DNA of 4,394 nucleotides, from the NCBI RefSeq assembly GCF_044324785.1, contig NZ_CP172132.1; one strand, 5' to 3'. This DNA is from Escherichia coli (GTDB lineage Bacteria > Pseudomonadota > Gammaproteobacteria > Enterobacterales > Enterobacteriaceae). This document shows positions 1 to 1,083 of the stretch, piece after piece; positions within the stretch are counted from its first letter, which is position 1, and each line of letters begins with the position of its first letter. A model generated the notes under the pieces. It made no database searches. It saw only the letters and a list, made by a program, of their open reading frames with translations, and was not told where the DNA came from. A program made the translations under genes and the position numbers.

Positions 1-1083
1 TGCTTTATGGATCTGCTTCTTAAGATGTTTTCTGGCTTTCCGCATAAGCTTCTTATGACTGTGCGCACGGCATAAGACCATTTGAAATTTGGTCGTTTGC
101 GTGTGCATGTGGAGTTTGAAGCTGTGCGGGCGTCACTTTCGTCAGCGTTAAAGCTGACAAAGTGACGCTCGCACGTCTACTCAACGAACCCGCATAAACT
201 GGCTCTTCACGGGATGTTTTTTAACATTTGAAGAAGTGACCAGACGTGAGCGTTTTTTTCAGCCTCATTCTGTATCGTACTGACGCTTCTCCGGACTGAC
301 TTCCTGAAAGCTTAGTACCAACTGCAGAATCACATTGTTTTTTAAGGAGTTTAATGTAGTGAGTTACCGAATCGGCGATATATCTGACAGGCAGATATAT
401 CGGGGGCGACCTTTAAAGGTACAGTTAATTCTGCGGTCGGTTAGCCAAACCGACTTGACACCCCGCTAAACCTGAACTGATTGCGTTACCCTGACGCACA
501 GGTACTCACTCACCGAAGGAACGTAACTACAAACCGTGTCGTCAGGTTAAATGCAGAAGCACAGAAAACAGGAAAGATATCCTGGAAACCACAGGGGAAT
601 GAGCATGTAGGTATCTTTGGTGTTATCCGGATCGCCGTAAACCCTGCCATGAAGGACAGATTTTGACGGCGATCAGGATAAAAAATGCCATAATGATTGT
701 GGCCTTAAAATTATCGAAAACACGAATTTAGTTTTACATTTGTGCGCGTATGTACGCCTCAAAAAAAACAACCAACGAAAAACAACTCATCAACAAAATA
801 ATAACAAAACCTTCTTGTTTTGTGATTTATGTTGCACAGTTTGATTGTAAGTCACATCTGTGAAACGAAATTGTTTTGCGCTATGGCACCTGATGAGATA
901 AAAGAAAGAGGGGTGTTTCTGTATCGTAAAGTCTCTAGCCGGATAGCTTTTCATTAGTAGTACAGAAACATCCCCACTCATCAGGATTCAGGATCGATAG
1001 CCATTCGATATAAGACTGCTGATTGTGTCTTCGTTAAAATCTATCTTTTCACGTGAGAATTAAGAACTGTTAATTCATCGTTT

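Follow-up and report, generated by a model that had tools for sequence, protein, structure and literature searches.

A divergent EFASI element with a putative ribosome-binding flank on a small circular plasmid of Escherichia coli

Introduction

What does a strong Shine–Dalgarno (SD) sequence do when the start codon behind it is followed at once by a stop codon? The question is raised by positions 344–469 of a 4,394-nt stretch of Escherichia coli DNA (assembly GCF_044324785.1, contig NZ_CP172132.1); this whole stretch is called the window below, and positions refer to it. A preliminary description had noted in this interval an SD sequence, a start–stop pair that could act as a ribosome-loading or regulatory element, and a 36-codon open reading frame (ORF) beginning with GTG. 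It overlooked the main feature: the interval is the 5′ flank plus the first two-thirds of a conserved folded element, EFASI (357–510). Sequence and structure comparisons place this copy in EFASI, a known family of orphan motifs. We favor, with moderate confidence, the reading that it is a sense-strand RNA element in the leader of a tyrosine recombinase transcript, whose 5′ ribosome-binding flank would compete with the folding of the closing helix, P1.

EFASI and its neighbor STAXI are orphan structured motifs of unknown function. What is new here is the plasmid context, the extent of the module to which both belong, the conserved flank that resembles a ribosome site, an additional hairpin (P5), and the tight linkage to the recombinase gene.

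Identity and fold of the element

A cmscan search against Rfam matched EFASI (RF02957) at 357–510 on the plus strand, over the full model (1–133), with 48.6 bits and an E value of 9.9e-8. The name stands for "Enterobacteriaceae, Frequently Around STAXI and Integrases", and the Rfam text, as far as it is quoted in PMC12370729, places EFASI copies several hundred bp downstream of STAXI and upstream of integrase genes, with function unknown. Homologues from integrative and conjugative elements (ICEs), ~75% identical to the window, scored 55.4, 52.3, and 50.2 bits against the same model, the first two above the cut-off; canonical EFASI copies scored 99–121 bits. The fold was obtained with RNAalifold on a MAFFT alignment of 12 sequences of the variant subfamily, and it comprises the following features.

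357–510, plus strand: EFASI, divergent long-hairpin variant (cmscan, RNAalifold, pair counts)
358–368/501–510, plus strand: helix P1, the closing helix (RNAalifold)
376–386/392–402, plus strand: helix P2, the long hairpin (RNAalifold)
403–406/461–464, plus strand: GGGG/CCCC helix (RNAalifold)
409–412/417–420, plus strand: small hairpin P3 (RNAalifold)
422–424/431–433, plus strand: small hairpin P3b (RNAalifold)
435–443/447–455, plus strand: helix P4 (RNAalifold)
483–488/492–497, plus strand: extra hairpin P5 (RNAalifold)
511–557, plus strand: conserved 3′ tail, CACCGAAGGAACGTAAC....AACCGTGTCGTCAGG...; homology to the ICE copies stops at 557

The RNAalifold helices agree independently with the EFASI structure of cmscan, and the multi-helix junction is present. 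Across the 12 sequences, the 51 pairs of the fold were paired in 98.5% of 612 cells, compared with 34–42% when the partners were slid. Changes on both sides of a pair occurred in nine pairs (37 cells), and the observed covariation score was reached by no shuffle. The EFASI junction string, ACCCCNCNANACCUNAAC ... CCNNGNCGC, is present at 460–497. Covariation was counted on the variant subfamily alone, with no joint structural alignment of the two subfamilies; a joint MAFFT alignment misaligned their 5′ ends and was left unused. A covariance model of our own, built from seven canonical copies, was too narrow (it gave the window only 9.5 bits, E 0.66, with filters off) and was set aside.

The window copy thus shares with the Rfam family the full-model match, P1, the GGGG/CCCC helix, the internal hairpins, and the junction string, as well as its place several hundred nt downstream of STAXI and its enterobacterial host. 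It differs in the longer P2 hairpin, an extra small hairpin, and the conserved 47-nt tail; it scores under the 51.2-bit cut-off and has no integrase gene downstream in the plasmid. The SD-like tract and AUG at its 5′ edge, like hairpin P5, lie outside the Rfam consensus structure.

Strand of the fold

Single-sequence folding is blind to the strand (−58.4 vs. −59.3 kcal/mol), which is told by comparative data only. Counts of G·U versus A·C pairs were 54 versus 2 for EFASI, 14 versus 1 for the canonical copies, and 42 versus 3 for a structured block upstream of EFASI (47–262, listed below). Consensus folding energies for the plus and minus strands were −58.4 and −46.2 kcal/mol for EFASI, and −72.5 and −59.2 kcal/mol for the upstream block, a difference of ~12–13 kcal/mol for the plus strand; the canonical set has low diversity, and its consensus folding was uninformative on this point. 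These comparisons indicate that the EFASI fold is selected on the plus strand, in the same sense as the neighboring ICE genes, which fits an RNA.

The 5′ flank and the start–stop

Sequence reading bore out the elements that the preliminary description had listed: AAGGAG (344–349), ATG (354–356), TAG (357–359), GTG (359–361), and the stop TAA (467–469) are all present (...TTGTTTTTTAAGGAGTTTAATGTAGTGAGTTACCG...), and the 36-residue translation of the GTG359 ORF was correct. The statement that this ORF is in frame with ATG-TAG was wrong, as GTG359 lies in another frame and shares just the G with TAG (TAGTG). The frame of ATG354 itself reads ATG-TAG-TGA, a double stop, 4 nt behind AAGGAG.

The exact string AGGAGNNNNATGTAG had 0.00 expected occurrences in shuffles. 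Under a relaxed definition (a 5-mer SD core, 3–9 nt spacing, and ATG or GTG plus any stop), at least one match occurred in 21% of Markov simulations of the window, and ORFs of 30 aa or longer number 43 in the window. For these reasons, neither the start–stop nor the ORF is remarkable in a single sequence, and it is conservation in relatives that gives the site its meaning. The flank consists of three parts.

335–343, plus strand: U-rich tract TTGTTTTTT, directly 5′ of the SD-like motif; nearly invariant in three variant clades, with variable sequence further upstream
344–349, plus strand: AAGGAG, the SD-like motif, unpaired and 8 nt 5′ of helix P1; shared by all 12 aligned sequences
354–362, plus strand: ATG-TAG-TGA, a start with two in-frame stops, which abuts and overlaps the 5′ arm of P1 (sequence reading, pairing)

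The string TTGTTTTTT-AAGGAG-TTTW-ATG-TAG-TGAG is essentially invariant among sequences that are only ~75% identical overall, and the sequence just upstream of it varies. Of 17 distinct variant sequences, 16 retain the whole arrangement of U-tract, AAGGAG, 4-nt spacer, and ATG-TAG; the sole exception reads ATG-TGG-TGA and preserves P1 by a G·U pair. Like AAGGAG, the ATG is invariant in the 12-sequence alignment, and the SD-like tract is single-stranded in both the minimum free energy fold and the consensus fold. P1 begins at A358, and A358 and G359 of the TAG pair with U510 and C509; this pairing accounts for part of the conservation of the flank. In the canonical copies (Citrobacter, Mixta, Buttiauxella, and Escherichia sp.), (A/C)AGGAG, AAGGAA (Mixta), or CAGAAG (Buttiauxella) stands 3 nt before EFASI position 1; an ATG is found at model position 1 in six of nine copies, and ACA, ATT, or CTG in the other three, with no adjacent stop. 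Judged by these alignments, the flank looks like a real ribosome-binding site without a product. Both the SD-like tract and the ATG thus belong to the conserved element, although they lie beyond the limits of the Rfam model, and a ribosome-binding flank is plausible.

The preliminary description had suggested that the start–stop is regulatory in its own right. On this account, the SD would load ribosomes on AUG354-UAG, and the turnstile or standby event would be the function, independent of the fold. Start–stops bind ribosomes and can modulate expression in E. coli, where functional examples exist (bioRxiv 10.1101/520783), and the retention of the U-tract, AAGGAG, 4 nt, and ATG-TAG(-TGA) in 16 of 17 variants so divergent overall would suit such a role. 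Yet in the loci examined the motif was never seen without the EFASI fold; in canonical EFASI the SD and ATG are present with no adjacent stop, and the ATG itself is absent in three of nine copies; the AG of TAG and the following GTGAG are nucleotides of P1; and a motif of the relaxed kind arises in a fifth of simulated windows (21%). The ORF list shows no gene downstream in the window that the site could regulate, and in the ICEs the recombinase starts ~230 nt beyond the start–stop, past the whole EFASI fold. We therefore regard an autonomous start–stop as rather improbable. The minimal ORFs of Meydan et al. (bioRxiv 10.1101/520783) resemble the site in having an SD-like sequence and then an AUG immediately followed by a stop. 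They lie within genes and were shown by Ribo-RET and toeprinting, whereas the present site is a predicted one, flanks a structured RNA, and lacks its stop in the canonical subfamily.

Inspection by eye also raised GGA pairs of the CsrA type and an AGG:CCU pseudoknot joining the SD-like tract to the junction; both ideas were dropped, the partners being invariant or not conserved in the canonical family.

The STAB-SD of Bacillus cryIIIA is an SD-like 5′ mRNA stabilizer that binds 30S subunits without translation. The EFASI flank would be similar in that a conserved SD without a productive ORF stands at the 5′ side of a transcript region; the Bacillus element belongs to a Gram-positive organism and depends on a 5′ exonuclease.

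The GTG ORF

359–469, plus strand: 36-codon GTG ORF, judged a fortuitous frame across helices P1 to P4 and not a gene

The mechanical ORF in this frame begins upstream at TTG335 (335–469, 44 aa). Could a small protein be made, of 36 aa from GTG359 or 44 aa from TTG335? The SD lies 9 nt upstream of GTG359, and the ORF is intact in the window, in the O157-island copies, and in two clade-B copies. Its length, however, is 36 codons in the window and the O157 class, 38 in the two class-B copies, 21 in an IncK plasmid copy, and 10 in 11 of 11 distinct ICE-type sequences, where it is ended by a TAG located in the loop of hairpin P2. Compared with locus L043, a 90%-identical relative, 11 of 11 base differences are nonsynonymous, without third-position bias. 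Canonical copies are 130, 131, or 132 nt long and, differing by 1–2 nt, conserve no frame either. The ORF crosses five helices, so that most of it lies within conserved structure, and its GTG, with the AG of TAG, consists of P1 nucleotides. Comparison of homologues thus showed neither a conserved frame nor a coding substitution pattern, and it indicates that the ORF is an accidental frame running through the helices, not a gene; a real small protein here is scarcely credible.

The doubt that the preliminary description had raised on account of rare codons was well placed, since 7 of the 36 are rare E. coli Arg or Ile codons (CGA twice, CGG twice, AGG, and ATA twice). It had also proposed to compare the frame in relatives, where breakage would speak against a protein, and the frame is indeed broken there (the 10- and 21-codon versions). 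Genome annotators should therefore refrain from calling a gene here, whether the ORF is taken as 36 or 44 aa long.

A noncoding module across the circular junction

The window is circular. A rotated version gives a single unbroken alignment (4372 through 545, 94.7%) with the EDL933 chromosome, and a 4,433-nt metagenome contig with a 47-nt terminal overlap (L047) is the same plasmid in another rotation. Because of this circularity, STAXI ends 479 nt upstream of EFASI across the junction. The same order, with a gap of ~475–505 nt, is found in L003 to L006 (the O157 island and three E. coli ICE loci).

4098–4271, plus strand: STAXI (RF01728), 78.9 bits (gathering score 40.5), E value 4.6e-16
4345–4359, plus strand: terminator-like hairpin with a T-rich tail after STAXI (consensus scan only)
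47–262, plus strand: conserved structured block upstream of EFASI (RNAalifold: 70 pairs, 6 with compensatory changes)
47–123, plus strand: long hairpin I (alignment and RNAalifold)
124–174, plus strand: hairpin II, with base GCGTCACTTT/AAAGTGACGC (alignment and RNAalifold)
214–227 and 228–262, plus strand: hairpins III and IV (alignment and RNAalifold)

Homology to the island and ICE loci spans from the 5′ edge of STAXI (~4091–4097) to 557, and plasmid backbone begins at 558. Sequence comparison thus delimits a noncoding module of ~0.85 kb that consists of STAXI, two long hairpins, EFASI, and the conserved tail (4098 through the junction to 557), and that occurs both in ICEs of E. coli and in the urease/tellurite island of O157. 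Within this conserved, promoter-less module, which is folded on the plus strand, EFASI is a single component. The upstream block also contains an inverted repeat found by the repeat scan, and canonical EFASI, too, has hairpin II upstream of it, where the base is kept and the inner stem differs.

STAXI is the physical neighbor of EFASI in the module, and both are orphan structured motifs that occur in ICEs and islands, close to ssb, topB, and genes for anti-restriction and integrases. The fold of STAXI differs, being a tandem repeated pseudoknot unit, and it is not the element at 344–469. The module starts at the STAXI 5′ edge in four unrelated left contexts (L004–L006 and L060; window 4091–4097). 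An 80-kb ICE has three STAXI copies, each heading a gene group: one after topB and before ssb, one before EFASI and the recombinase, and one before small genes. Between L005 and L004, gene content diverges right after a STAXI copy. From these positions, STAXI may mark recombination or transcript boundaries.

In ICE L005, a perfect 22-bp stem–loop (5232–5281; GCAGATGAATTTTGCTGTTGTG / CACAACAGCAAAATTCATCTGC) without a U-tract lies between the EFASI tail and the recombinase start codon, and homology between the window and the ICE stops at its first bases (window 557).

Relatives and the recombinase gene

Copies were found in 631 of 5,426 complete E. coli genomes (roughly one in nine), including O157:H7. 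They form a ~96% identity class from the urease–tellurite island of O157 and other Shiga toxin-producing E. coli (STEC; 574 records, probably clonal), a ~91% class from IncK-type and other plasmids (11 records), and a ~75% class from chromosomal ICEs (49 records). Canonical EFASI was retrieved from Citrobacter, Mixta, Buttiauxella, and Escherichia sp. by a pattern search with the junction sequence, and a second pattern gave 24 more variant copies from metagenomes, which fall into the same three classes. The recombinase protein, used as a query against genome contigs for ICE relatives, found none; the DNA pattern of the EFASI junction succeeded.

Of the 40 EFASI instances that could be assessed, 28 are followed by a tyrosine recombinase gene (PF12834/PF12835) with the same orientation. 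It starts 46–160 nt after the EFASI core in 27 of the 28; in L022, a partial match starts 372 nt after it. The catalytic motifs of the recombinase (R, K, HxxR, and Y) are intact in the ICE copies, and truncation affects several of the canonical copies. No relative turned up when its sequence was searched against PDB chains. The module is thus tightly coupled to uncharacterized tyrosine recombinases, in an association that is frequent, not obligatory: the gene is missing in the O157 island, the IncK plasmids, and this plasmid, where neither an ORF nor a tblastn match for it was found and EFASI has no integrase gene behind it. An invertible switch was considered and dropped, as EFASI keeps one orientation with respect to the recombinase in every locus.

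The native loci are an 80-kb ICE of the SPI-7/ICEclc type at tRNA-Phe, tRNA-linked islands of Citrobacter, Mixta, and Buttiauxella, and related sites. The ICE begins with parA, dnaB, parB ... topB, STAXI, ssb ... and the type IV secretion system, and continues with STAXI–EFASI–recombinase, STAXI, small genes, a DUF1281 protein, a methylase ... uvrD, traI, and int; all of its genes are on one strand. L004 and L006, which are sister loci, have a gene of the ArdC family after the small genes.

L022 (JAEWTL010000009.1), labeled as a Bacillota metagenome-assembled genome, has a canonical EFASI (154 bits with our own model) together with a truncated homologue of PF12835; this contig probably stems from mis-binned enterobacterial DNA and not from a Firmicute. 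More than 140 Salmonella megaplasmids (~170–330 kb) match just 107 nt upstream of and into canonical EFASI (90.8%), the rest being unmatched, and the EFASI module in them appears, from this match, to be truncated at its 5′ edge. Citrobacter youngae ATCC 29220 has five near-identical canonical EFASI copies on three scaffolds (L011–L015), followed by a PF12835 recombinase wherever downstream sequence is available, and hence several related islands.

Proposed role and its alternatives

We propose that EFASI functions as RNA of the sense strand and most likely belongs to the leader of the transcript that encodes the recombinase. At the 5′ edge of the element, the invariant U-tract, AAGGAG, and AUG would make up a genuine site for 30S subunits or ribosomes, one that would yield no product, with AUG-UAG in this variant and nonconserved frames in the canonical family. 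Since a ribosome positioned on AUG354 would sit over the 5′ arm of P1, ribosome binding and EFASI folding should exclude each other. The fold or stability of the RNA, and hence the expression of the downstream recombinase, could be coupled to translation status; the flank could also serve as a standby or stabilizing ribosome site. The plasmid copy would be an orphan, either a passenger or kept for a function independent of the adjacent gene. RNA from the region has been found by DNase-treated and controlled reverse transcription quantitative PCR (RT-qPCR) of STEC vesicles (PMC12370729), and the EFASI primers of that study match the window exactly at 389–408 and 455–474. A good terminator precedes STAXI in the ICE, and the terminator-like hairpin follows STAXI in the window.

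Several points weigh against this proposal. The RT-qPCR of PMC12370729 was not strand-specific, and no sigma-70-like promoter was found anywhere in the module in the three contexts scanned. G·T wobbles occur in folded single-stranded DNA (ssDNA) too, so the strand test cannot separate an RNA from plus-strand DNA. The window copy falls 2.6 bits short of the Rfam gathering score (48.6 vs. 51.2). Ribosome binding at the flank is a prediction; the spacing from SD to AUG is short (3–4 nt), the AUG is replaced in three of nine canonical copies (ACA, AUU, CUG), and the U and G of the AUG, with the AG of UAG, are also constrained by P1 pairing. Lastly, EFASI stays intact without the recombinase gene in the O157 island, the IncK plasmids, and this plasmid, a persistence that fits a purely cis-regulatory role poorly.

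The missing promoter would also suit an element of plus-strand ssDNA that folds during conjugative transfer or replication, as a priming signal (ssi), a part of oriT, or a site at which the PF12835 recombinase would recombine, comparable to integron attC or CTX-phage attP. Mobilization or lagging-strand priming would then be the reason why the small plasmid captured the module. We consider this reading unlikely, although much of the context agrees with it. The module occurs in conjugative elements near genes for ssDNA handling and anti-restriction (topB, ssb, ArdC, methylase), its left edge is the STAXI 5′ edge in four contexts, it fills the interval that holds a MobQ relaxase gene in sister plasmids, and it is intact in two plasmid versions that differ by a recombination patch; the discoverers of the motifs, moreover, state that their method also finds ssDNA structures (PMC5737381; PMC2864571). 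Set against this, the fold is on the strand with the sense of all ICE genes, and by the logic of leading regions (F genes point toward oriT), the transferred strand would be the opposite one. The UUCG loops of STAXI and the GAAA loop of canonical EFASI are RNA-stabilizing, and RNA from the region has been detected (PMC12370729).

Known ssDNA elements offer only partial parallels. The Frpo/ssi ssDNA promoters of plasmid leading regions (PMC11541004) are likewise folded noncoding elements before ssb and anti-restriction genes, with ordinary promoters missing. The module differs from them in that no pair of −35/−10 hexamers was found in its hairpins, its fold is on the coding-sense strand, and the F leading region, Frpo included, gave no match to STAXI or EFASI; homology of either motif to Frpo was therefore rejected. 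As regards a G4-type primase signal, a blastn search of 50,697 phage records for similarity to phage origins gave no match. Integron attC and CTX-phage attP share with EFASI a strand-specific folded element adjoining a tyrosine recombinase gene, and the pipeline that discovered EFASI also yielded a motif that proved to be attC (PMC5737381). Here, in contrast, there are no cassette arrays (one EFASI and three STAXI in the 80-kb ICE), the EFASI fold is far more complex than an attC hairpin, and no recombination junction is known within it.

Persistence without the recombinase gene in the O157 island, the IncK plasmids, and this plasmid, together with the RNA detected in vesicles (PMC12370729), could also be expected of a trans-acting small RNA, an independent transcript that pairs with or titrates a target elsewhere; Rfam annotates EFASI in this way in the text quoted in PMC12370729. 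Such a transcript would need its own ends, and no promoter-like site was found upstream and no plus-strand intrinsic terminator within 250 nt downstream. Conservation runs unbroken from 47 to 557, and the coupling to the recombinase gene is tight and on the same strand. We judge a small RNA improbable, a shade more so than an autonomous start–stop.

A more speculative possibility, which we regard as a long shot, follows by analogy. The STAXI–hairpin–EFASI block might be the nucleic-acid partner of the PF12835 recombinase, either as a strand-specific folded recombination or entry site or as an RNA cofactor, with the 5′ ribosome-binding flank gating its folding; the logic would be that of attC/attP hairpins or of recombinase-associated guide RNAs. 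If true, the module could act in trans, which would explain its survival in foldable form on a tiny plasmid and on decayed islands without the gene.

The plasmid that carries the module

The window is a circular 4.4-kb iteron plasmid of the Rep_3 type, whose iterons and initiator gene form the replication origin.

2341–3033, minus strand: Rep_3 initiator gene (PF01051/PF21205; family match)
3128–3215: four 22-nt iterons (two 44-nt units, 98% identical), adjoining the Rep_3 gene

The backbone is ~91% common to plasmids of 5.3–5.6 kb, whose MobQ relaxase gene lies outside the shared backbone, in the interval occupied here by the module. As a unit, the module is able to pass onto a 4.4-kb plasmid, where it is exchanged by recombination, and the plasmid offers a small, clonable system for testing the function of EFASI and STAXI.

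In L047 (MAVC01000034.1), the other version of this plasmid, 51 of ~63 real differences cluster in 100–600, with about a dozen elsewhere, and its EFASI block at 100–600 is the 91%-class (IncK-like) version. This cluster is a recombination patch and therefore points to exchange between plasmid and island or ICE copies.

Two further regions of the window were noted. Positions 1197–1509 hold a 313-nt element resembling a miniature inverted-repeat transposable element, with 51-nt terminal inverted repeats (1197–1247/1459–1509, 92% complementary), 211 nt between them, and no transposase ORF. Positions 3554–3925 share 91–96% identity with the smallest cryptic plasmids of the Col type (~1.5 kb) from E. 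coli, Shigella, and Klebsiella, which makes the plasmid a mosaic in which a Rep_3 backbone is joined to part of a tiny Col plasmid and to the ICE-derived module. The adjoining stretch 3480–3560 may resemble the primosome-assembly region next to the ColE1/pBR322 origin.

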